NCBI GenBank assembly: GCA_964526965.1 | Contig: CAZGML010000007.1 | Span: 14,658-78,657 of the forward strand | From: an uncultured Sphaerobacteraceae bacterium | Lineage (GTDB): Bacteria > Chloroflexota > Chloroflexia > Thermomicrobiales > UBA6265 | Length of the DNA stretch: 64,000 nucleotides | Direction of reading: 5' to 3' | Part shown: positions 36,808-48,680 of the stretch, in pieces | Layout: the number at the start of each line of letters is the position of its first letter | Numbering within the stretch: position 1 is the stretch's first letter | Translations under genes and position numbers: made by a program | Notes under the pieces: generated by a model | Database searches by the model: none | What the model saw: only the letters and a program-made list of their open reading frames with translations | What the model was told of the DNA's origin: nothing

Positions 36808-37070
36808 ATAACGTGCTCCCCCGAATCCTCCGGGTGTGCGAACCTAACTGTGGTTCAATGTCGATGCTACCATCTGTTGCAGCAAATGCGCAGATGTTCC
36901 AAAAGGTCACAATCTTACGGTTCTTCCGTTTCGCCATAACCGTGACTGACGGTGTATGCTGAAACACTGCAATGGCGCGAATTATCGCCGATTGCCATTA
37001 AGAATTGTTCGTTGAGAAACCGGCTTTGCACCGGACGTGCTCAACGTACCGCATTGACAGAATTTCGGAT

Positions 37071-40000
37071 ATGGCTGAACAGGAATCCCAATTTAAACCA
37101 AAGCTCTCCCGGCTGGATTTGCACGGGTTTAAGAGTTTTGCCACCAAAACCACGTTCCAGTTCGAACCAGGGATCACCGCGATTGTCGGGCCAAACGGAT
37201 CCGGCAAGAGCAACATCGCCGATGCCGTGCGCTGGGTGCTGGGTGAAACCAGCCATTCGGCGCTGCGCAGCAAGAAGACCGAGGATGTGATTTTCGCGGG
37301 TGGCCGTGGCAAGCCCCCCAGCGGTATGGCCGAGGTAACGGTCACTTTTGATAACGAAGACCACTGGCTGCCGAGCGAGTTCGCCGAAGTAACAGTCACC
37401 CGGAGGGCATTCCGCGGTGGCGGAGGCGAATACCTTATTAATGGACGCAAGGTACGGTTGAAAGATGTTGCCCGGCTCGTCGCCTCGCTTGGGCAAAGCT
37501 ACACAGTGGTCGGGCAGGGACTCGTCGATGCCGCGCTGAGTCAGCGGGCAGAGGATCGGCGCGGGCTCTTCGAGCACGCTGCTGATCTCACTGGCCTGCG
37601 GCTGCGGGTGGCAGAAGGCGAGCGCAACCTCGCCGAGACGGATACAAACGTCACCCGGCTCACCGACCTGCTTTCACAGGTGGAGCCCAACCTGAAGCGC
37701 CTCGAACGGGCAGCGAAACAGCAGCGCGAATGGAAGGAGTTGCGCGAGCACCAACTCTTCCTGCAGCGCGGGCACTACCGGCGCCTGTTGGAAACCGCCA
37801 GGGCGAATATGACGGAAGCGGAGACGAATGCCGCCTACGATCAAAACGCTATGGCCGAGGCACAATCCGAGCTTGATCAACTGATCGCGGCGCGCCCTGG
37901 CCTGGAGCAGGCACTCCAGCAAGCAACGAACGAACTGGAACGGCATGATGCTCGCCTTGGTGAGCTTCGCGAGCAACTCAACGACGTCTCGCACCGCAAG
38001 GAACTGGTTGAAGAACGGCTTGCTGCGCTTGATCGCCGCTCGACGGACGCCGAGGCAACTCGCGCCGCCCTGCTGGAACAGATCGAATCCACAGAAAAAC
38101 GCATCGGCACGAGCGACGCAGCACTGAGTGAACTCACGGCAGAGATCGAGACCGCGCGTGAAGCCGTGCAGCAGCAGGAATCCACAGCAAACCTGGCTCG
38201 TAGCGAGCGGCAGGAAGCCGAGCAGGCGCTGGCCAAATGCAGTCATGAAGCACTGCAGCTGGAACGCAAGGTGGCCGATGCGCAGCAGAAGCGGGCGTTG
38301 CTGATTCAGCGCAAGGAGACCTCGGCTGCGGATACCGAACGTTTGACCGCGGAATCGAAAGAACGTGAGAACCGGTTACAAACGCTATCTGCTGAACTTG
38401 CAGAACATGAGCATACGGATAAATCGCTTACGGATCAGATTGCGGCCTTAGACGCGAACCTCGCGGAGTTACAGCAGGAAATCGAAGCCGCCACTGAATC
38501 GTCTCGCGCCTCCCTGGAAGAGCAGGCACAAGTTGAGCGCGATCTTGCCCAGGCCAGCCATCGCATGGAAATCCTGCAGCGCATGCACGAATCCGGCGAA
38601 GGGCTCTTTCAGGGTCCACGCAATGTAGTGCAGTGGCACTCGGCTGGCAAACTCTCAGGCATCCGCGGCACGCTTGCGGAACTGATTGAGGTCGACAAGA
38701 AATACGATCGTGCACTCGAGACCGCCCTCGGCGGCCACCTGCAGGATATCGTGGTCGATGCGTGGAAGGATGCCGAAGCTGCCATTCAGATGCTGAAGCA
38801 ATCCCGCGCCGGGCGAGCGACCTTCCAGCCCATCGAAACCGTACGTCGCCGGGGTGGTCATCGTTCACCACCACGAGAGATCGAGGGTGCGGCAGGTGTT
38901 CATGGCATCGCCAGCGATCTCGTCGACAGCGATCCCGATGTCGCCGACGTTGTACGGGGACTGCTTGGCAGGTTTGTGGTTGTTGAAGACCTGGATACGA
39001 GCCGGCGATTGCTCGATTCGCTTCCGGGCGGCTGGAGCACGGTAACCCTCGCCGGGGAAATCACCCGCAGTGGTGGCTCGGTGACCGGTGGATCGCAAGG
39101 ACGCGACTCCGGCATGCTCAGCCGGGAGCGAGAGTTGCGGGAGCTGCCGGATCGAATTTCCGCGCTCGAACAAAAGCGAGAGGCAATCAACCAGGATGTA
39201 GCCGCCAAGAATCTTAAGGTGCAGGAACTGCAACAGCAGCGGAGCGATGTTGGCTCGCAGCGAGCGGATCTCTCCGCCCAGCTCAAGGCCCTCGTTCCAC
39301 AGCGGAACCGGTTGCAAGGCTGGATAGCCGATGTGCAGAAGCAGCAGGCGGCCGCAACACAGCAGCAGCAGGCGGCGGCGCTCACTTCAGATGACCGCGA
39401 GAAAGAAATCAGCTCGCTGGCCTCGGAGATCGATGCCGGTAAAGAGCGGATCGAATCTCTTCGCGACCAGGAAGCGGAGCTGACCGCCAGGCTCGCGACG
39501 CATCGGGATTCCGCCTCGGAGCAAAACGAATCGCTTTCGAACGCCAACTCGCAATTGGCGGCTCTGGAAGAACGGGTTCGTGCCGAAGAACGTCAGCGCA
39601 GTCAGTGGCAAAGTCAACTCCGCGCGCAACAAACCGAGTTGCAGAACCGGCAGAACGACGAAGCCGAGATGGAAGGTCGACGCCTGGCGCTGGCCGATGA
39701 GCTCGAACGCCTGAAGGCGGAAGAGCAGCGACTTGGAGAATCCGTGGAAAGCGGCGACACCGCTCGCAAGCCACTGGCAGATGCAATGGGGGACGCCGCC
39801 AACAAACTGCAGGCACAGCAAAAGCAAATCGAGACGTCGCGCCAAACGACGATGGAGCGAGAGCGAAGCTTCGGCCAGAAAGAACTCCAGCTGGAACGTG
39901 TTCGGGCCGAACTGTCGTCCGTGCACCAACGCATTGTTGACGATCTTAACTATGAAGATCCGGATGATCTGCTTGCGGACACTGAGGAGCACGACTTCTC

Positions 40001-40730
40001 CGAACTCCCCGACGATTACGACGCTGTTGAGCGAGAGCTCACGCGTTTGCGTAATCGCCTTCATCGAGTTGGATACGTTGGCGACAACGTTGTAGAGGAA
40101 TACGAGCAGGAAGCCGAACGGTATGCCTTCCTGACGGAACAATTGGCCGATGTGCAGCAGGCTGCAGCGCGATTGCGGGAGATGCTGGCAGAGCTCCACG
40201 ATACGATGCAAACCCGCTTCGAAGAGACATTCGAGCAAGTGAGCCTCGCCTTCAGCGAGGCGTTTACGGTGCTGTTCGGTGGCGGGCAGGCACGCCTGGT
40301 ACTCACCGCTGATGAAGATGGCACACCGGGCGGTGTGGACATCGTGGCGCAGCCTCCGGGCAAGCGGCTCCAGGGACTCGCGTTGCTGAGTGGTGGCGAG
40401 CGGTCGCTTACCGGTGTGGCACTGCTCTTCGCGATCCTGCGGGTGAACCCGTCTCCTTTCGTGCTTCTGGACGAAGTCGACGCCGCGCTGGACGAAGCAA
40501 ACGTGGTGCGCTTCCGCGACGAATTACGCAAGCTTGCGAATGAGACACAGGCGATTGTCGTCACCCACAACCGCGGCACGGTTGAAATTGCCGATACGCT
40601 CTACGGCATCACCATGGGCGGAGATGGCGTAAGCCAGACGCTAAGTCTGCGCATGGACGATCTGCCGATTGATGAAGAGTTCGACGTACGCGACCTCCCT
40701 GCCGTTTCAACCGGGATTCCGGTGCGATAG
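37071..40730 (+). CDS. smc: Chromosome segregation protein SMC
   Basis: Start at the ATG at 37071. LHGFKSFATKTTFQFEPGITAIVGPNGSGKSNIADA Walker A. Long coiled coils. Hinge GIRGTLAELIEVDKKYDRALETALGGHLQDIVV. Signature LSGGERSLTGVALLFA. Walker B FVLLDEVDAALD. Confidence 0.97.
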   Translation: MAEQESQFKPKLSRLDLHGFKSFATKTTFQFEPGITAIVGPNGSGKSNIADAVRWVLGETSHSALRSKKTEDVIFAGGRGKPPSGMAEVTVTFDNEDHWLPSEFAEVTVTRRAFRGGGGEYLINGRKVRLKDVARLVASLGQSYTVVGQGLVDAALSQRAEDRRGLFEHAADLTGLRLRVAEGERNLAETDTNVTRLTDLLSQVEPNLKRLERAAKQQREWKELREHQLFLQRGHYRRLLETARANMTEAETNAAYDQNAMAEAQSELDQLIAARPGLEQALQQATNELERHDARLGELREQLNDVSHRKELVEERLAALDRRSTDAEATRAALLEQIESTEKRIGTSDAALSELTAEIETAREAVQQQESTANLARSERQEAEQALAKCSHEALQLERKVADAQQKRALLIQRKETSAADTERLTAESKERENRLQTLSAELAEHEHTDKSLTDQIAALDANLAELQQEIEAATESSRASLEEQAQVERDLAQASHRMEILQRMHESGEGLFQGPRNVVQWHSAGKLSGIRGTLAELIEVDKKYDRALETALGGHLQDIVVDAWKDAEAAIQMLKQSRAGRATFQPIETVRRRGGHRSPPREIEGAAGVHGIASDLVDSDPDVADVVRGLLGRFVVVEDLDTSRRLLDSLPGGWSTVTLAGEITRSGGSVTGGSQGRDSGMLSRERELRELPDRISALEQKREAINQDVAAKNLKVQELQQQRSDVGSQRADLSAQLKALVPQRNRLQGWIADVQKQQAAATQQQQAAALTSDDREKEISSLASEIDAGKERIESLRDQEAELTARLATHRDSASEQNESLSNANSQLAALEERVRAEERQRSQWQSQLRAQQTELQNRQNDEAEMEGRRLALADELERLKAEEQRLGESVESGDTARKPLADAMGDAANKLQAQQKQIETSRQTTMERERSFGQKELQLERVRAELSSVHQRIVDDLNYEDPDDLLADTEEHDFSELPDDYDAVERELTRLRNRLHRVGYVGDNVVEEYEQEAERYAFLTEQLADVQQAAARLREMLAELHDTMQTRFEETFEQVSLAFSEAFTVLFGGGQARLVLTADEDGTPGGVDIVAQPPGKRLQGLALLSGGERSLTGVALLFAILRVNPSPFVLLDEVDAALDEANVVRFRDELRKLANETQAIVVTHNRGTVEIADTLYGITMGGDGVSQTLSLRMDDLPIDEEFDVRDLPAVSTGIPVR

Positions 40731-40752
40731 TCGGCTCTGACCCGAGAGGACG

Positions 40753-41226
40753 CTAGCGGTTCGCCCGCCATCGGTTGGTGGTTTCGGCGTGGTGGCGATA
40801 ATGGTTGAGCGACGCCTCGCGCACCCAGCCGCGCACATAATCATCCCAGGCCTCGTCTGGCATAAGGGTCAGGGTGCGGACGATGGCTTCGTGGGCGCTG
40901 TGGTAACGCTGCCAGGCGGCCTCGAGCGTAATATCCGCATCGATCTCAGCCCAAACCAGGTTGAGGCTCTCGTAGTCGTCGTACTCATTGATTCCAGGCA
41001 GCACCCCGCGCCACCGACGAACGATCATCTCGGTGGTCACCTCATCCCATCGGGCGATATGCACCAGCGTGATGCGACCGTTCCACGAGCCGGTCATGCC
41101 GGGCTCTTCCAAATCCTCCGGGGAAAGCCCCTCAAACGCGGTGTCCAGTTCGGCGCGCGATCTGCGCCATTCCGCCAGGAACTCATCCCGGCTTGCAGTA
41201 AGTGCATCAAACTTCGCCTGCTCCAT
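40753..41226 (-). CDS. DinB/ClbS-like (DUF1706-like) four-helix-bundle protein
   Basis: 157 aa. Pattern ...FEGLSPEDLEEPGMTGSWNGRITLVHIARWDE...HYRHH is consistent with the DinB superfamily. Function not assignable. Confidence 0.6.
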   Translation of the reverse strand: MEQAKFDALTASRDEFLAEWRRSRAELDTAFEGLSPEDLEEPGMTGSWNGRITLVHIARWDEVTTEMIVRRWRGVLPGINEYDDYESLNLVWAEIDADITLEAAWQRYHSAHEAIVRTLTLMPDEAWDDYVRGWVREASLNHYRHHAETTNRWRANR

Positions 41227-41366
41227 TCGGGGTTAACTCCTACAAAAACACTCGGATATTGTCAAAGAGTTGCGGTCTTAATATTGCGGCGTACTTGCTA
41301 AGCTGTATATAACGATTTCTATCAGTTTCGGAAATCGCTACACCTCATAAAGAAGGAGAGGTATCA

Positions 41367-42425
41367 ATGTCCATTATCCGGCTTCCCGCAAACCTTGTAC
41401 TCCCGGAGCGTCCGGATCGGCGCCAACTGCTTCGTGCAGGCGCTGCCGGCCTCGGCGCTGCCACACTCCTCGGCAACGCGAGTGCCCAACATGATCACAG
41501 TACACCAGAAAGCTATGTAGGTTCTGACGCCAGTACGGAAGGTACCGGAGACGCCACTCCTGGACCGCAGGCGGAAACAACCCCGTTTGAGCGCTATGAT
41601 CCCTACCTTGAGCCAGTTGAACCCGGCGACAAGCATGTGACCATCAGTTTCGAAGACCGCATCGTGTGGCTTTCGAACGACGTGCAATACGCAGCATGGA
41701 CGTTGAACGGCACCGTTCCGGGACCACCGCTGCGCGCAGTGCAGGGCGATACGATTCACGTTCGGCTTGAAAACAACGCACCGATGACACACTCGATCGA
41801 CTTCCACGCGGCTCGGGTTTCACCGGAACACGGCTTCCGCAACATCCAGCCGGGCGAAGTATTCGAATGGGAATTCGTTGCCGAGCATCCGGGTGCATTC
41901 ATGGTGCACTGCGGAACGGCTCCAACCCTTATCCACATCGCTGCCGGTATGTACCTGCCGATCATCATTGATCCGGCGGAGGATATGTTTGAGCCGGCAA
42001 CCGAGCTCGTGATCTCGCAGTCGGACTTCTACACCACGCCCGGGCCGGACGGGATTCACGTCACTGATGGCGACAATCTCTTCAATCCGGCAGCGGCGCC
42101 GAACATCATGGCGTTCAATGGCCACCAGAGTCAGTACATCGACGATCCGATTGAAGTGCCGGTGGGCGAGTTGATTCGCATCTATTTCGTAAACCAGGGA
42201 CCCAATATCTGGAGTGCCTTCCACGTGGTAGGTGGCATCTTCCACAAGGCGTACTGGAACGCCAACCCGAGGAACATGCTCGAAGGCCTGCAAACCATGA
42301 CCGTTGGGCCTGGCGATGGCATTGCCACTGAGATCATCTTCGACGAACCAGGTGATTACATTGCGGTGAACCACAGCTTTGGTCACGCGGCTCACGGAGC
42401 CAGCGCCATTTTGCGGGCGTCCTAA
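41367..42425 (+). CDS. NirK-family two-domain copper protein (copper-containing nitrite reductase-like), Tat signal
   Basis: AAGGAGAGG RBS. Tat motif DRRQLLRAG. Cu-ligand pattern THSIDFH (H142, D145, H147), VHCGTAPTLIHIAAGM (H181, C182, H190, M195), AFHVVGG, AVNHS (H336). Confidence 0.75.
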   Translation: MSIIRLPANLVLPERPDRRQLLRAGAAGLGAATLLGNASAQHDHSTPESYVGSDASTEGTGDATPGPQAETTPFERYDPYLEPVEPGDKHVTISFEDRIVWLSNDVQYAAWTLNGTVPGPPLRAVQGDTIHVRLENNAPMTHSIDFHAARVSPEHGFRNIQPGEVFEWEFVAEHPGAFMVHCGTAPTLIHIAAGMYLPIIIDPAEDMFEPATELVISQSDFYTTPGPDGIHVTDGDNLFNPAAAPNIMAFNGHQSQYIDDPIEVPVGELIRIYFVNQGPNIWSAFHVVGGIFHKAYWNANPRNMLEGLQTMTVGPGDGIATEIIFDEPGDYIAVNHSFGHAAHGASAILRAS

Positions 42426-42463
42426 CGAATCGGCCTTTCAGAATAGTCAGCTCTCTCGAGAGG

Positions 42464-42485
42464 GCAGTCCGGAAATCCGGGCTGC
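42464..42485 (+). terminator. Terminator hairpin after the NirK-like gene
   Basis: GCAGTCCGG, loop aaat, CCGGGCTGC (one G-U pair), followed by TCTCTCATATTGTT. Confidence 0.55.
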
Positions 42486-42619
42486 TCTCTCATATTGTTC
42501 CTTAGCCGGGTCACACAGTTCCGCAATTATGTAGGACAATAGGTGACATATCAGGAACTCAAATACCGCACCCGCCGCCGGCTTTGCCGTACAAATTTTG
42601 GGAAGAGAGTTAATTCGCG

Positions 42620-45196
42620 ATGCAACTGGGGCACAAACCGGATCATTTTCAGCAACAGGCCATCGATTCCACGGCACAGGGTATTCGTATAGTGGCGCCG
42701 GCTGGCTCGGGCAAGAGCGAAACACTGGCCCGCCGCATAGCGAAACGCGTGCAGCACGACGGAATTGATCCGCAGCGGATTCTGGTACTTACCTTCGACA
42801 ACGCCGCCAAGAAGAGCCTCACGGGATTCTTCAATGGGCTGCTCGACCGCAAACAGATGCCCAAGATACGCACGTTTAACTCGCATGGCAATCAAATACT
42901 CAGACAGTACTTCCCCAGTGAGCGGGCTGAACTTCCCAACGCGCGCGGCTCGCATGAGGTACACGATCTTAGGCGGTCGTTCCTGAATATGGGACATGAT
43001 TTTCCCGTACTCTCCTGGGATGGTGTGCCCCGCACAATGATCGAGACATTCAGTTCGCTTAAGAACCAGGGATTCTATCCAGGCAGAAATGGTGAGCGTG
43101 AACGGCAAACAAAATGGCTGCGCGACGAATACCTGCAGCTGCCGCGCCAGGGCGAGAGCACATCCCTGGAAGAGTACTGGGGCATGCCTTCCGCAGTGCC
43201 ATCTGAGGATAATTACTCGATCCAGCTGAGCGGAATCCTCGATGCGTTCGAGCAGTTCGATGCGGGCATGCGAACGCTCGGACGTATGGACTACGAGGAT
43301 CAAAAATCTCGCGCTGTTGAGCAATTACGCCGCTCGCGATCCACATGTGAGCAGTTGCAGGCCGAGTTCGATGAAGTGGTGGTGGACGAGTGCCAGGACA
43401 TCAGTCGGCTTGATGCGATGCTGGTCTACTACTCTGCCGGACCGAAAACACTCGTTGTGCTGGCCGGAGATGATGACCAGACGCTGTACGAGTGGCGCAA
43501 TGCACATTCGCTGTACCTTCGGCATCCGGAGATCGTATTTAAGGGAATCGAGTTCGAGACCATTCACCTCAACCTGAACTACCGCTCTCCACAGGCCATT
43601 CTCGGGCCGGCGGTAAACCTGATTTCACACAACGTCGAGCGCATCGAGAAATCGCCATCCAGCGGTGTTCTTGAACCGGGCGAGATCGAAGTGCAGGCGA
43701 TGGGTTCACAACGACAGATGGACGAAGCGCTGGTCGCCAATATCAAACGCGAGCTGGAGGCCGGACGGCCGCCAGAGGAGATAGCGGTGTTATGCCACGC
43801 GCGACAAGACCGGGCGATGAAAATCCCGATTGAAAAGCGCTTGCGCGATGCCGGTATCCCGATTGTGGAGGCCAGCAGTGACGAGCGGATCAATAAACCC
43901 GGTGTTTGGGTGCGGAGCTTTCTCAAATCGAAGGGACGTCAGTGGCCGATTGTGTTTATCCCGGCGGTGAATGATCGAGAAGTTCCCGATACAGAAAGTA
44001 TCCGCAAAGGCAAGGTGGAATCAATTCGCCGACGATTCTACGTCGCCATGACCCGCGCCAGCGAGAAACTCGTGCTGAGTTACGTGCGCGGTGGAGACGG
44101 GGATCGCATCGATCTCACTGCCGAAGGCGAAGTGGTGGGCACGAATGGGGCGAGTCGGTTCCTGTTCGAAGCCGGTCTGGTTAACGCGGAAGAAGCACCT
44201 GCCGTTACTGAACCGGAGGATGCCCCAGCTCCGATTCCAGCAGTTGAAGAGCCGGTTCACTCCCCTACTCAGACGCAACCCCAGGCCAATCCAACAGCCG
44301 CACAACCGAAACCGGAGAAGCCAAAAAAGCGTGTGCGACCGAAGAAGTGGGAACCGTATGCTCCGGAGACGCGCAAGCTGGCAAAGGCGGTATCGGAATG
44401 GGAAGCCGGCGATTACGACAATGCGATTTTCTGTGCCTGGGCGCCCCTGGAAAGCGTGTTGCACCGACTGGTGAAGTTTCCGCCCGGCACAAAGAACACC
44501 GATCTGGTTTCGTTGATCGATGAGGCCGAAATGCAGGGTGTGATCAGTGAGGAGTGGAAAAATCGCCTTCACTTGTGGCGACGGATTCGGAACCAGGCGC
44601 TCCACAACAATCCGGCCAAACGCCAGTTCAAACCCGAGAAGTTTCACGACTATGGATTCCAACTCGTTGATGGTGCACCCGGGTTCTTCACACATCTCGC
44701 GGAACTGAACGCGCCGAAGCAAATGGTGCTGGAAACGCAGGATGAGTTCCTGAAGAAGCTGGGAAACCTGGTAACCCAGATTCAGCAGGGAAAACCATCT
44801 CCCCTGCTCGGTCGACCGCTCAAGGCGATCCGTTTCCATCCGGAGCAAGACACGTTTGATATCCTCGCGATGCAACTGATGATGGTGTTACGCGACGTGC
44901 GCTTTTACGTTCCGCCAGAGTTCCGCTGGAGCGCATCGCCCCTCATCAGCAAGTTCTCGGTGGACACGCTTGGTCATCTGCCCGAAGGGTTCCGTACTCA
45001 TCGTGCCAACAAGATGCGAATGGATGCGGGTGAAGAACAGAATCAGCTGATGGCGCGGTTCGACCGGATGCTGAAACAGGAGTGCGGCGAAACCGACCCG
45101 GGTTCGTTTCTGCGGGAGCGACTCAGTAACGGCATCGCGCTGGAGAACGGCAACTTCCACTCAGGGCTAAAGTTGAACCCGAAGGTGAAGGTCTAG
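42620..45196 (+). CDS. SF1 (UvrD/Rep-like) helicase fused to a DUF4145-like HEPN module and an unassigned C-terminal domain
   Basis: Walker A APAGSGKS (aa 26-33), VVDECQD (254-260), LAGDDDQTLYEWRNA (281-295), NYRS (320-323), RRRFYVAMTRA (470-480). Pro/Gln/Lys linker. Helical module aa ~578-668 ends in RNQALH (nt 44588-44605). The last ~190 aa are unrecognised. Confidence 0.9.
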   Translation: MQLGHKPDHFQQQAIDSTAQGIRIVAPAGSGKSETLARRIAKRVQHDGIDPQRILVLTFDNAAKKSLTGFFNGLLDRKQMPKIRTFNSHGNQILRQYFPSERAELPNARGSHEVHDLRRSFLNMGHDFPVLSWDGVPRTMIETFSSLKNQGFYPGRNGERERQTKWLRDEYLQLPRQGESTSLEEYWGMPSAVPSEDNYSIQLSGILDAFEQFDAGMRTLGRMDYEDQKSRAVEQLRRSRSTCEQLQAEFDEVVVDECQDISRLDAMLVYYSAGPKTLVVLAGDDDQTLYEWRNAHSLYLRHPEIVFKGIEFETIHLNLNYRSPQAILGPAVNLISHNVERIEKSPSSGVLEPGEIEVQAMGSQRQMDEALVANIKRELEAGRPPEEIAVLCHARQDRAMKIPIEKRLRDAGIPIVEASSDERINKPGVWVRSFLKSKGRQWPIVFIPAVNDREVPDTESIRKGKVESIRRRFYVAMTRASEKLVLSYVRGGDGDRIDLTAEGEVVGTNGASRFLFEAGLVNAEEAPAVTEPEDAPAPIPAVEEPVHSPTQTQPQANPTAAQPKPEKPKKRVRPKKWEPYAPETRKLAKAVSEWEAGDYDNAIFCAWAPLESVLHRLVKFPPGTKNTDLVSLIDEAEMQGVISEEWKNRLHLWRRIRNQALHNNPAKRQFKPEKFHDYGFQLVDGAPGFFTHLAELNAPKQMVLETQDEFLKKLGNLVTQIQQGKPSPLLGRPLKAIRFHPEQDTFDILAMQLMMVLRDVRFYVPPEFRWSASPLISKFSVDTLGHLPEGFRTHRANKMRMDAGEEQNQLMARFDRMLKQECGETDPGSFLRERLSNGIALENGNFHSGLKLNPKVKV

Positions 45197-45855
45197 GCTG
45201 GCGGACGAGCGATAACGAAACGCATGATGCCGAAGAGGCGCCGCCGGTGCTCCTGAATGGTGTAGCCATTCTGTTCCAACGTCTCGATAGTTGTGCGATC
45301 CAGATGGCAACCCATCGTCCGGATTTGGATCGGTGCGACGAGCTTTTGCATCCCGCCCACGAACCAGTTCGGCGAGAGAACATGCTCTATCACCACCAAC
45401 CGACCGTCTGGCCGTAAGACTCGGGCAATTTCCGCCAGTGCCTTGGGCACGTTAGGAATGGTACAGAATACCAGGCTGGCGGTAACCGTATTGAACGAGT
45501 TCGCCTCGTACCGGCTCAGGTCCTCGGCGTCGGCAATTTCCAATGTAGCGGGGATCGAAAGGCCCGCCGCTGCCGCTTTGGCTTGCGCGATCATGCCGGG
45601 GCTAATATCTATGCCAGTAAAAGATGTTACGGAATGATCATATTCTCTGAGACGGTTGAGGGTATCGCCGGCAGCGAGGCCGATTTCCAGCACATCGCCC
45701 CGCAGCTCGGACACAAGGTCATCTCGCCATTGCTCGCTGGTAAGGCGAGTTTCCGCCCTACTCTCCCGCTGCAACCAGGTGGGCGCATGGGAATCATAGA
45801 TCCTCGCAAGCCCGGTACGTTCCGGTGGTGTACGATCCGTGAAGAATTTCCGCAT
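45193..45855 (-). CDS. Class I SAM-dependent methyltransferase (Methyltransf_11-like)
   Basis: VLEIGLAAGD (motif I), GIDISPGMIAQAK, ADAEDL, VLRPDGRLVVIEHV. Convergent with the helicase gene, with a 4-nt overlap. Confidence 0.88.
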   Translation of the reverse strand: MRKFFTDRTPPERTGLARIYDSHAPTWLQRESRAETRLTSEQWRDDLVSELRGDVLEIGLAAGDTLNRLREYDHSVTSFTGIDISPGMIAQAKAAAAGLSIPATLEIADAEDLSRYEANSFNTVTASLVFCTIPNVPKALAEIARVLRPDGRLVVIEHVLSPNWFVGGMQKLVAPIQIRTMGCHLDRTTIETLEQNGYTIQEHRRRLFGIMRFVIARPPA

Positions 45856-46328
45856 TGCGGTACCTCCTGCTCCACATGGTACATCGGCCTCTACCTCAGA
45901 GGAACGTCATGGCGAATACCCGCAGACAATCGATTCAGGCAGACGGAAGGTTTATCCGTACGGCGCTTATACGGGCGTTACGACCTGTACGTGTGCCGGA
46001 GGATTAAACAGTGAGCCTGGGGAGCGGGCAGAAGCGATGTGATTGCCGAAGGTTTGCGCAGCCTCATTGAATTGCAGGATGACTTGATGCCTGTCCTGAT
46101 TGAACATTGGTTTCGCTCCGCAACGGTAATGGACCTGTACGGGATCGCCGCCATTCAAATAGTCGTTTTGCGTTCTGAGCCCCTGATCTGGATGTTATGG
46201 AATATACGTAATCAGGAGTTTGACCATATGCGTCAAGAGATGCTGGACCAGGCGCTGGCCCTCGCGTGACAAAAACGATAGCAAGCGCAGGCGGTTGGCG
46301 ATTCCTTTCAAACGGACTCTGTACATGC

Positions 46329-47111
46329 CTACTCGTGTTGACTCAACATTGACGGCAGTTCGGCAAGCGATTCGACTGTTATCCACGGCTCACCGCCATC
46401 TGGCTGTTGCCGGCCCATACTGATCCAGACTGCGCGAATGCCATACGCCTGCGCACCAAGAACATCGCGCGGGAAGCTGTCGCCGACCATGATGGTTTCC
46501 CCGGTTGTTGCTCCGAGCGTATCAAGCGCATGCTGATAAATGCCCGGCTCCGGCTTGCCAATAGCCAACTCACCACTGATGACAATGGCATCGAAATACT
46601 TCTCGAGACCGGTGTTATTGATCTTGGTGCGCTGTACGTCGGGGATTCCGTTGGTGACCATGCCTAAACGGTGTTTCGCTGCCAACTGTTTAAGCGCTTC
46701 TTTCGCGCCGGGGCACCAGGGGTTGGTGGCGGCCCGCTCCCGTTCGAACATGGCATCGAGTTCGGCAGCGAGATCACTATCCCCTACTCCCAGCGACTTC
46801 AGCGCATTGGTCCAGCTTTGGAGACGGAAACCAGGCCCCCATTCCCGCATGGTTTCCCAGTGATGATCGTCACCTTCGAAGCGGGCGCGGAGTCCCTCGA
46901 TTTCGCTGGTACCGATGCCATCCAGCCAATCCGGGAATGGGCCTGCCTGCCAGATTTGACGGGATGCCGCGCGGACTGCAGAAATCAGCCCTTGTGGGTC
47001 GATATCAACCTTGCTGGCGGCATAGTTTGCCGTGGCCTCGAAGGCGATATCGGTAGCTGCATCATCCTCCAGAATTGTGTCGTCCAAATCGAGGAGTACG
47101 GTGGTAATCAC
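46329..47111 (-). CDS. HAD superfamily hydrolase
   Basis: MITTVLLDLDDTIL (DxDxT motif I), GMVTNG (motif II), GKPEPGIY, MVGDSFPRDVLGA (motif IV). Confidence 0.85.
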   Translation of the reverse strand: MITTVLLDLDDTILEDDAATDIAFEATANYAASKVDIDPQGLISAVRAASRQIWQAGPFPDWLDGIGTSEIEGLRARFEGDDHHWETMREWGPGFRLQSWTNALKSLGVGDSDLAAELDAMFERERAATNPWCPGAKEALKQLAAKHRLGMVTNGIPDVQRTKINNTGLEKYFDAIVISGELAIGKPEPGIYQHALDTLGATTGETIMVGDSFPRDVLGAQAYGIRAVWISMGRQQPDGGEPWITVESLAELPSMLSQHE

Positions 47112-47590
47112 AGCGTTGCCTTTCGAGAGAGTTTGTTGACAGCCGCGTCTATGGCAGACGCGAATTGCGATCGGTCCTTTTTGCTGAATGCGGGTGGTCC
47201 GCTGGTCATCTCGCCCATCTGCCTCAGCATGGCGTTGAGATCACGCGATGCGAGCGCATCGCCGATGCGATTTGGATTGAAGTGCTTGCCACGGAAATCG
47301 ATGCAGTCGGCGCCGACCTCCAGGGCCCGTGCCGCGAGGGGTATATCCGCGGTCAGCACCAGGTCATCGCTTGTGGCGTGCTCGGCGATCCAGTCGTCGG
47401 CGGCATCGGGTGATCCCGGCACCACCACTGCGCTGGCGACTTTGGCGGCATCGGCCGGGATTCGAATGGGGATATTGGCTACTACCTTGAGAGGAACGTT
47501 GTAGCGAGCAGCGGTGCGGAACACGAGGTCCTTCACCGGGCAAGCATCGGCATCGAGATAGATAGTTGGTGGTGTCGCTTCGTTATTCAT
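47108..47590 (-). CDS. YaiI/YqxD family protein (DUF188, UPF0178)
   Basis: IYLDADACPVKD...DAADDWIAEHATSDDLVLTADIPLAARALEVGA is the DUF188 pattern. 4-nt overlap with the HAD gene. Confidence 0.85.
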   Translation of the reverse strand: MNNEATPPTIYLDADACPVKDLVFRTAARYNVPLKVVANIPIRIPADAAKVASAVVVPGSPDAADDWIAEHATSDDLVLTADIPLAARALEVGADCIDFRGKHFNPNRIGDALASRDLNAMLRQMGEMTSGPPAFSKKDRSQFASAIDAAVNKLSRKATL

Positions 47591-47664
47591 ATGTGAAGCG
47601 TACCCAACAATCAGCTTCCCGGCACGGTCGTTATACCTGGGGCAGACACGGTTGAGATATTAAT

Positions 47665-48036
47665 ATGGCCATGCATCCTGCAGTTGAAAAGCATTTGGAC
47701 GACATCCGCGCCGCCGCAGAGCGTTACGGCGTGGAGAAGTTGGAGATATTCGGGTCGGCAATGACGCCGGAATTTGATCCGGAGCGGTCGGATGTCGATT
47801 TCATCGTGCACTACCCGCCCGGGTATGACTATGGAGTATTTCTCAAGCGGTACCTTGATCTCGAAGATGAACTGAAAGAGATTCTTGAGAGACCGGTGCA
47901 ACTTGTAATGACGAGTGCGCTCAAGAAGGAATCTTTTCGGCGCAATGCTGGAGCTACGAGGACACTCATCTATGTCGCAACACGACCTGATTCAGGAACT
48001 CCAGGACATCAGAAGATATTCCCAGCTCGTTCTTGA
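47665..48036 (+). CDS. Nucleotidyltransferase (MNT-type antitoxin of a HEPN/MNT pair) with a C-terminal read-through extension
   Basis: IFGSAMTPEFDPERSDVDFIVHY is the minimal-NTase GS...DxD motif. The frame runs ~20 codons past the usual ...LIYV end, into the remnant of the downstream HEPN gene. Confidence 0.8.
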   Translation: MAMHPAVEKHLDDIRAAAERYGVEKLEIFGSAMTPEFDPERSDVDFIVHYPPGYDYGVFLKRYLDLEDELKEILERPVQLVMTSALKKESFRRNAGATRTLIYVATRPDSGTPGHQKIFPARS

Positions 48037-48100
48037 GCACACGTCCAGCATGACCTTTGACGACTATACGGAGGATATGGTCACGCAATACGAAAAATAG
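47972..48100 (+). pseudogene. Truncated DUF86/HEPN toxin remnant (N-terminal ~42 codons only)
   Basis: The ATG at 47972 overlaps the MNT frame, as in intact MNT-HEPN pairs. MSQHDLIQELQDIRRYSQLVLEHTSSMTFDDYTEDMVTQYEK then stops. The R-x4-H catalytic motif expected further downstream is absent, and a terminator follows directly. Confidence 0.55.
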
Positions 48101-48102
48101 TT

Positions 48103-48122
48103 AAGGGGCCCTTGCGGGCCCC
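48103..48122. terminator. Bidirectional terminator shared by the HEPN remnant and hsp20
   Basis: AGGGGCCC, loop ttgc, GGGCCCCT. Confidence 0.7.
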
Positions 48123-48134
48123 TGTGTGCTGCCG

Positions 48135-48680
48135 TTAATCGGCGGGAACGGCGTCTTTTTCACTTTCCGCTGCGTCGGCGGTATCAGCGTTATCGGCGGC
48201 AAGTTCTGCAACCTGCTGCTCACTCGTAACGGTAACCGGGATTCGGCGGGGCTTGCTGACCTCAAGCTTCGGTAGCTTGATGCGGAGCAATCCGTTGGAG
48301 AACCCGGCCTCGACAGTCGACTCATCGATCTCGAATGGCAACCGGATGCGACGTTCGTATTCGCCGCGCGGAATCTCGGCCATGTACCAGGTGACGGGCT
48401 CGCCGTGCTCGTCTTCCTGCTTGCGGTCGGCGCTGAGGCTACCGGCAATGGTCAGGGTGTCTTTCTCGACAGAGACTTCGACGTTCTCCGGATGCATTCC
48501 GGGCATCGAGGCAAGGACCATAGCGTGGTCATTGGTCACGTAGAGATCAACTGGCATGCTCGACTGTGCTGTGTGGGTGTTACCAGCTTTGCGGCGAGAG
48601 CGTCTCGGCAACGAGGTTGCTTGATCCAGCGCATCGAATGCGGAAAGGATATCGTAGAACGGAGTGTTGCGAGTAATCAT
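48135..48680 (-). CDS. Hsp20/alpha-crystallin family small heat-shock protein
   Basis: PVDLYVTNDHAMVLASMPGMHPENVEVSVEKDTLTIAG...GEYERRIRLPFEIDESTVEAGFSNGLLRIKLPK is the alpha-crystallin domain. Confidence 0.93.
   Translation of the reverse strand: MITRNTPFYDILSAFDALDQATSLPRRSRRKAGNTHTAQSSMPVDLYVTNDHAMVLASMPGMHPENVEVSVEKDTLTIAGSLSADRKQEDEHGEPVTWYMAEIPRGEYERRIRLPFEIDESTVEAGFSNGLLRIKLPKLEVSKPRRIPVTVTSEQQVAELAADNADTADAAESEKDAVPAD

Follow-up and report, generated by a model that had tools for sequence, protein, structure and literature searches.

The locus examined here raises the question of whether a helicase that carries a putative ribonuclease on the same polypeptide belongs to the defence arsenal of its host or to its routine nucleic-acid metabolism. 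It lies in a stretch of 64,000 nucleotides, referred to below as the window, on contig CAZGML010000007.1 of an uncultured Sphaerobacteraceae bacterium (assembly GCA_964526965.1), where one open reading frame (ORF) encodes a protein of 858 amino acids. A first reading made without database searches, here called the sequence-only reading, had described this ORF at 42620–45196 of the forward strand as a solitary polypeptide in which a superfamily 1 (SF1) helicase is followed by a HEPN-type module and then by a C-terminal domain (CTD) that could not be assigned, and both the ORF and the anatomy proved right. The same reading had proposed a single-gene defence or abortive-infection system, for which we found no support in view of the fixed synteny of the gene, the loss of the motif histidine H662 in part of the family, a sub-threshold match to DUF4145 and the lack of relatives among the viral, phage and plasmid sequences searched. 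The placement of the gene is stable, vertically inherited and of housekeeping type, unlike that of a mobile defence gene, and the explanation we favour, at somewhat less than an even chance, is a helicase fixed in the chromosome whose RNase tail would be active or semi-active, and which occurs in a few Chloroflexota lineages (Thermomicrobiales/Sphaerobacteraceae).

A block formed by smc, a DinB-like gene and a Cu-oxidase gene is retained in eight loci, and in 8/8 of them the helicase occupies the same slot at 59–78% helicase identity. It is followed by a convergent methyltransferase (MTase) gene in 7/7 block loci that extend beyond the helicase, with HAD, DUF188 and MBL-NUDIX genes farther on where the contigs reach. 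The DinB, MTase, HAD, DUF188 and NUDIX genes still adjoin a homologue of 38% identity (P0026), and NDK and DCD follow at a greater distance; the latter two recur near a homologue of 33% identity (P0032). The common order in another clade is helicase, a HEGYPGHH protein of 412–423 amino acids, an AhpC/thioredoxin-like gene and LplA, and more distant members have other housekeeping genes around the helicase. Across pairs of homologues, the identity of the helicase correlates roughly with that of its neighbours (r 0.50 with Smc, 0.75 with DinB). Where the sequence-only reading had asked whether homologues occupy variable defence-island contexts, they lie in fixed housekeeping-type synteny next to a canonical smc, an outcome that this reading had itself named as counting against it. 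No relatives were found in IMG/VR viral contigs, GenBank phages or PLSDB plasmids, and the G+C content of the gene (0.556–0.572, as opposed to 0.52–0.61 across the whole window) does not differ from its flanks, which agrees with the earlier judgement of its composition. In the homologous loci inspected, no restriction, CRISPR or OLD/TOPRIM partner was seen, nor any other that is recognised in defence.

The gene also stands by itself in the window. A terminator-like stem-loop with a 15-bp stem, located 3' of the Cu-oxidase gene as had been claimed for this NirK-like neighbour, marks the helicase gene as its own transcription unit, and the downstream MTase gene is indeed convergent, with a 4-nt overlap at 45193–45196. 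An Rfam scan of 40000–48500 revealed no RNA family. The earlier description of a solitary gene is borne out, as neither an obligate partner nor GajA is present in the window or the homologous loci.

The helicase core is matched in Pfam by UvrD-helicase (PF00580; 112.3 bits, cutoff 23, E 4e-32) and UvrD_C (PF13361; 74.9 bits, cutoff 25.6, E 1e-20). The Q motif, Walker A and motifs Ia, II (DExQD), III, IV, V and VI are all present, each at least 90% conserved among 32 aligned homologues, and the core terminates in an invariant TNGASRFLFEAG motif. The motifs were located at the residues given for them before: APAGSGKS (26–33), VVDECQD (254–260), LAGDDDQTLYEWRNA (281–295, motif III), NYRS (320–323) and RRRFYVAMTRA (470–480). 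UvrD and PcrA are the best PDB sequence matches of the protein (E ~1e-22). However, with 124–134 bits the scores of the NCBIfam equivalog models of UvrD, PcrA and Rep fall far below the cutoffs of 911–1144, so that the protein is no orthologue of UvrD, PcrA or Rep. In the alignment to Escherichia coli UvrD, residues 217–395 of the query correspond to UvrD 181–357 and residues 403–489 to UvrD 530–615, which leaves eight query residues (395–403) in place of UvrD residues 357–530. Since we take the latter, from the UvrD structure, to be most of the 2B domain, this domain is missing in the query, and the four-subdomain layout that includes 2B is not present. Apart from the loss of 2B, the SF1A motor is intact, and its ATPase and helicase motifs are all conserved. 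As 2B is autoinhibitory in Rep, a natural motor without it is likely to be regulated differently. When searched with PADLOC, the core is best matched by the GajB and DRT-helicase models (E 4e-39), which are generic UvrD-type matches; the check that had been proposed for the defence reading yielded such models on the core and no GajA partner. The core is connected to the HEPN module by a linker whose composition confirms the earlier description as rich in Pro, Gln and Lys. Its length and sequence vary among homologues, it has no conserved columns in the alignment and it is presumably disordered.

The module behind the linker was assigned by its predicted fold. AlphaFold2, with which the HEPN module and the CTD were modelled as single domains, produced from the family alignment of the module a five-helix bundle with a mean predicted local distance difference test score (pLDDT) of 92.5. 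Nearly all Foldseek matches of this model in the PDB are HEPN proteins, namely AF_0298 (2hsb), TM0613 (1o3u), HepT (6m6u, 5yep, 7bxo) and TT1696 (1ufb), with template modelling (TM) scores of ~0.6 and probabilities of up to 1.0 (2hsb: 1.00, TM 0.61), at E-values of only 0.07–1. On the strength of this model we accept residues 578–700 as a predicted HEPN fold. At the sequence level, the isolated segment matches DUF4145 (PF13643) with 20.1 bits (E 6.7e-4) against a gathering score of 23.1. Weak matches among the 32 family members are to DUF4145 (13/32, best E 8e-4), Hypoth_Ymh (11/32) and HEPN (1/32), all three of which we take to belong to the Pfam HEPN clan. Because the DUF4145 score remains under the gathering threshold, the module is described here as DUF4145-like and, judged by sequence, not filed as a member; of the earlier assignment as a DUF4145-like HEPN module, the HEPN fold held, and the match to the DUF4145 family is real but stays below the threshold. 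Profile searches of the PDB with alignments of the CTD (A3) and the HEPN module (A4) returned only noise, with the TT1696 HEPN at E 0.47. The A4 profile had no match in an index of 5.8 billion proteins, which is uninformative, as its own family was likewise not retrieved.

The R-N-Q-A-L-H signature was confirmed at R657–H662 (nt 44588–44605) and belongs to a polar stripe on helix 4 (Table 1), the conservation of which was counted in the 32 homologues. R654 and R657 are invariant (32/32 each), followed by W646 (31/32), N658 and W653 (30/32 each) and H651 (27/32). H662 is present in 20/32 and a His stands one residue later in two more, which gives a complete Rx4-6H in 22/32; of the two residues whose invariance had been put forward as a check, R657 is invariant and H662 is not. 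The ten members without the motif His have Lys in eight cases, otherwise Phe or Tyr. These eight are distant homologues with a conserved Lys in the H662 column of alignment A1 (R-N-x3-K), for example P0032, a variant that to our knowledge has not been reported for any HEPN family. The full R-N-x3-H, with a polar residue after the Arg, is found in the protein of the window and in the 17 homologues nearest to it (18/18), down to 45% identity, so that the HEPN domain of the near clade has the complete motif together with H651 and the invariant R654. The upstream acidic motif Ex3[KR] is less strict, with E611 in 21/32, K/R at +4 in 22/32 and R616 in 26/32; the window reads E611-SVL-H615-R616. Judged from helical periodicity in the model, helix 4 would carry H651, R654, N658 and H662 on one side and W646 and W653 on the other. 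In HEPNs of the AF0298 and AbiV type the motif His is absent and an upstream His is possibly used instead (PMC3710099). The often missing motif His and the upstream His of AF0298-type proteins parallel H651 of the query family, and by this analogy H651 could be an alternative catalytic His.

Purifying selection acts on each of the three folded modules, with ratios of nonsynonymous to synonymous divergence (dN/dS) of 0.13–0.29. The proteins P0021 and P0143 are 85% identical over the helicase and 91% over the CTD, whereas their HEPN modules share just 41% identity, and only one of the two proteins has the motif His. The HEPN module of this pair shows a dS of 1.9 and a dN of 0.55 (dN/dS 0.29), as opposed to a dS of 0.64 and a dN of 0.09 in the helicase and a dS of 0.47 and a dN of 0.06 in the CTD. 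The jump in synonymous divergence, together with the low identity of the module, indicates that the HEPN segment was replaced by a divergent allele (P0021). In the near-identical family members of the loci L030 (410–3079) and L031 (1672–4338), which differ by a swapped HEPN cassette with the motif His in one allele only, the dS of the module is 1.9 compared to 0.26–0.64 in the flanks; the region of the 1B domain (aa ~81–200) is also unusually divergent in these two loci. As HEPN divergence otherwise tracks that of the helicase across the family (r 0.91), such replacement looks occasional.

The CTD of ~158 amino acids is conserved more strongly than the HEPN module. It is basic (isoelectric point 9.2), carries the motifs MQLLMVLRDVRFYxPExYRWSxSP and NGNFHxGLKLNP, and has Q752 and R769 as invariant residues. 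Its AlphaFold2 model is of mixed alpha/beta type (pLDDT 90.9, predicted TM score 0.87). No match was obtained in Pfam, NCBIfam, the PADLOC models or the PDB sequences, nor was a fold match found by Foldseek in the PDB and BFVD, so the earlier statement that nothing recognisable is contained in this part held up in all of these libraries. When 1.84 billion representative proteins were searched exhaustively with the CTD (hmmsearch), all 29 matches proved to be C-termini or fragments of this helicase family. A confidently modelled domain for which no relatives are detectable is a candidate for a new fold and function.

About 35 full-length homologues were collected (31–80% identity, 97–100% coverage), and the named ones are all Chloroflexota, from metagenome-assembled genomes of Chloroflexia/Thermomicrobiales and from Thermomicrobiales/Sphaerobacteraceae. 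Among the species-representative genomes, a Sphaerobacteraceae assembly (80% identity) and three other Chloroflexota assemblies carry the gene, in a scan with a tighter CTD alignment that reaches near relatives only. The assembly behind one fully syntenic locus of 75% identity (L001, ENA ERZ4567617) bears the label of a sample from a Hadza/Nepal human-gut study, where a Sphaerobacteraceae-like member of the Chloroflexota would not be expected. The parts of the gene and the features that frame it are listed in Table 1.

Table 1. Positions in the window of the helicase gene, its parts and two framing features.
Feature	Position	Strand	Description and basis
Whole ORF	42620–45196	+	ATG start, 858 aa; UvrD-type helicase without 2B, linker, HEPN-fold module and family-private CTD
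SF1A helicase core of UvrD/PcrA type, aa 1–524	42620–44191	+	Q motif, Walker A, motifs Ia–VI; Pfam and NCBIfam
Pro/Gln/Lys-rich linker, aa 525–577	44192–44350	+	Composition: 13 Pro per 53 aa
Predicted HEPN-fold module, five-helix bundle resembling DUF4145, aa 578–700	44351–44719	+	AlphaFold2, Foldseek, weak Pfam matches
Polar stripe on HEPN helix 4, H651-x-W-R654-x-x-R657-N658-x3-H662	44570–44605	+	Candidate RNase or phosphate-binding site; motif census
Family-private alpha/beta CTD, aa 701–858	44720–45193	+	AlphaFold2 model; no fold match
Terminator-like stem-loop 3' of the Cu-oxidase (NirK-like) gene	42458–42491	+	15 pairs, 10 of them G-C, weak T tail
Canonical Smc	37005–40730	+	TIGR02168, 906 bits, cutoff 567

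Several neighbouring genes are easily mistaken for defence components. Smc is matched in PADLOC by mad3 (E 4e-64) and also by the LmuB, JetC and GajA models, and is likely to prompt false defence calls where matches of single genes are relied upon. The MTase resembles small-molecule enzymes of the UbiE/CpaM type and has a weak match to mad2. Since Smc is canonical and the MTase generic, the mad3, GajA-type and mad2 matches are considered cross-hits. MADS was accordingly rejected as an assignment, as its dedicated mad set is not found, and so was Gabija, for which the GajB models match the core but GajA is absent and UvrD and PcrA are at least as similar. The block itself is otherwise stable, yet small mobile modules appear and disappear around it. 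In the window, an MNT antitoxin gene is intact (47665–48036, forward strand; match to the PADLOC candidate PDC-S09), whereas its HepT is truncated, with aa 1–34 of 107 matching at 47987–48088 (forward strand) and an HSP20 gene where the HepT of relatives continues. Pairs of MazE/PemK and PIN/PhdYeFM genes lie near the helicase in other loci (L031 884–1461, L004 4850–5418, L001 12256–12971), but not in the window. At 45910–46270 of the forward strand the remains of a HEAT-like gene of 291 amino acids can be recognised by the start MANTRRQSIQ, after which fragments with internal deletions are spread over two frames. The gene is intact, with 290–291 amino acids, in L001 (11349–12224), L003 (11335–12210) and L007 (10614–11486), and in the P0026 lineage it begins 4 nt downstream of the helicase. 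Distant members have the HEGYPGHH protein in the same direction beside them (L002 10956–12227, L004 10852–12090, L005 10941–12206, L009 4067–5305), which shows a weak DUF885 match (E 0.0024). The HEAT-like and the HEGYPGHH proteins were considered as a conserved partner and rejected, as they are unrelated to each other, neither is universal and the HEAT-like copy of the window has decayed. Metagenome loci anchored on the Cu-oxidase show this gene in rearranged neighbourhoods without smc or MTase and are uninformative on the loss of the helicase.

Three explanations were weighed against this background. According to the one we favour, the motor would translocate 3'–5' on single-stranded DNA, and the HEPN domains of two molecules would pair, as HEPNs generally do, forming a composite site for the binding and cleavage of RNA and bringing two motors together, with the private CTD probably recognising a substrate or partner. 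The most probable task of the protein would be to remove or cut RNA encountered on DNA, for instance in RNA:DNA hybrids or in nascent transcripts where complexes are blocked. It would thereby play, within its lineage, a part that corresponds to the RNA-polymerase-linked roles of PcrA and UvrD. Several findings weigh against this explanation. The motif His is missing in 10/32 homologues, so that RNase chemistry may not be the common function of the family. The HEPN module is its fastest-evolving folded part and underwent allele replacement at least once (P0021), a pattern more typical of conflict genes, and the helicase diverges faster than smc. Several loci have toxin–antitoxin pairs (MazEF, PIN-Phd, MNT-HepT) close to the gene, and a substrate is not suggested by any informative operon partner. 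The family is also rare (29 clusters at 50% identity and four species-representative genomes with the patterns used), and may not be universal within its lineage. The divergence and replacement of the module and the toxin–antitoxin pairs, like the PADLOC matches of the core, would fit a lineage-fixed single-gene abortive-infection or anti-phage system, in which the helicase would sense or track foreign nucleic acid and the HEPN RNase would hit cellular or phage RNA. HEPN RNases are mostly conflict effectors and DUF4145-helicase fusions occur in restriction and defence contexts (PMC3710099), and with RAZR a DUF4145 RNase is a proven defence protein (PMC13017515). However, the housekeeping synteny is conserved over 59–80% identity and partly to 33–38%, no defence genes are adjacent, as the PADLOC matches of the neighbours are cross-hits of Smc, a generic MTase and an MNT antitoxin, and carriage by viral contigs, phages or plasmids was not found in the collections searched. 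The unremarkable composition, a GajB similarity no better than that to UvrD and PcrA, and the absence of the catalytic His in a third of the family also speak against defence, which we regard as an unlikely though still serious candidate.

In the third explanation, the protein would be a DNA-repair or replication helicase whose HEPN module is non-enzymatic and serves as a scaffold for dimerisation and nucleic-acid binding in place of 2B, with the invariant Arg residues binding backbone phosphates. Monomers of the UvrD family usually need dimerisation or partners for DNA unwinding, 2B is missing here and the context is of housekeeping type. R654 and R657 are invariant while the His is dispensable (Lys, Phe or Tyr in 10/32), HEPNs with lost motifs have been described as binding domains (Anantharaman et al., PMC3710099) and dimerisation is the rule among HEPNs (PMC13017515). 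However, the strict R-N-x3-H in the clade of the window (18/18, to 45% identity) argues for selection on the His, its substitute where it is lost is a conserved Lys and not just any residue, and H651 could act as the catalytic His instead, in the way suggested for AF0298 and AbiV (PMC3710099). We rate a purely structural role of the module as rather unlikely, and all other readings together are very unlikely. The helicase with an RNase tail remains our preferred explanation. In its most detailed form, a housekeeping helicase-RNase in which a 2B-less UvrD motor carries a dimeric HEPN nuclease on DNA and cuts RNA (R-loops, nascent transcripts), guided by a CTD of new fold, with His exchanged for Lys in sister clades (the R-N-x3-K variant) and a HEPN cassette exchangeable by recombination, we consider it improbable. 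HEPNs are mostly read as suicide or defence RNases, and one joined to a DNA-repair-type motor that has stayed beside smc over a long stretch of evolution would exemplify their use in routine nucleic-acid metabolism; the family would also offer a natural test of how a UvrD motor acts without its 2B regulatory domain. For genome scans it follows as a caution that the architecture of helicase and HEPN, or PADLOC matches to GajB, mad3 or mad2, alone are no sign of a defence system.

Compared with known systems, the query shares with UvrD, PcrA and Rep the Pfam domains and the conserved motifs, including the terminal SRFLxE motif, but reaches only ~130 bits where the equivalog cutoffs exceed 900, and its 2B domain is deleted. 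UvrD and PcrA have a C-terminal RNA-polymerase-binding Tudor-like tail, instead of which the query has the linker, the HEPN module and the private CTD. GajB has a compact UvrD-like core similar to that of the query (E 4e-39 in PADLOC), but solved GajB structures match weakly (E ~1e-3), and GajB lacks a HEPN module and CTD and works with GajA, an OLD-type ATPase-TOPRIM protein not found in the window or the homologous loci. The closest solved folds to the module are the minimal HEPNs of the HepT/AF0298 type (2hsb, 1o3u, 5yep, 6m6u; TM ~0.6), small stand-alone toxins or MNT partners with only 9–16% identity to it.

An SF1 helicase also works together with a HEPN RNase effector in CnuH-CnuE of the type II/III CoCoNuT systems; there, however, CnuH is UPF1-like, the HEPN resides on a separate wHTH-HEPN protein, CnuE, and the system relies on McrBC homologues in defence superoperons (PMC11090510), none of which applies to the query. 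RAZR, a zinc-finger protein with a DUF4145 HEPN RNase, is the only experimentally characterised DUF4145 found in the literature (PMC13017515). It shares with the query a divergent domain of DUF4145/HEPN type, in RAZR with a catalytic Arg and His and an RNase site formed by a dimer, but it carries an N-terminal zinc ribbon and no helicase, is triggered by phage ring proteins and occurs in many bacterial phyla (PMC13017515). The likeness drawn here is one of domain type. Closest in architecture are the DUF4145-helicase fusions, which have a HEPN and a UvrD-type or other SF1/SF2 helicase on one polypeptide, as in the query. The sequence-only reading knew of no named system with this architecture; the DUF4145-UvrD class is in fact catalogued (Anantharaman et al., 2013, Table 1; PMC3710099), and its lack of precedent holds for the private CTD, which is not described there. 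The catalogued fusions occur in restriction-modification and conflict contexts, and Rx4-6H is "mostly conserved (80%)" in DUF4145 (PMC3710099), comparable to 22/32 in the query family, which differs by its stable housekeeping synteny, its PF13643 match below the gathering score and the additional CTD. The query family is set apart by its 2B-less core, its private CTD, the His/Lys dimorphism at the catalytic position and its non-defence context.

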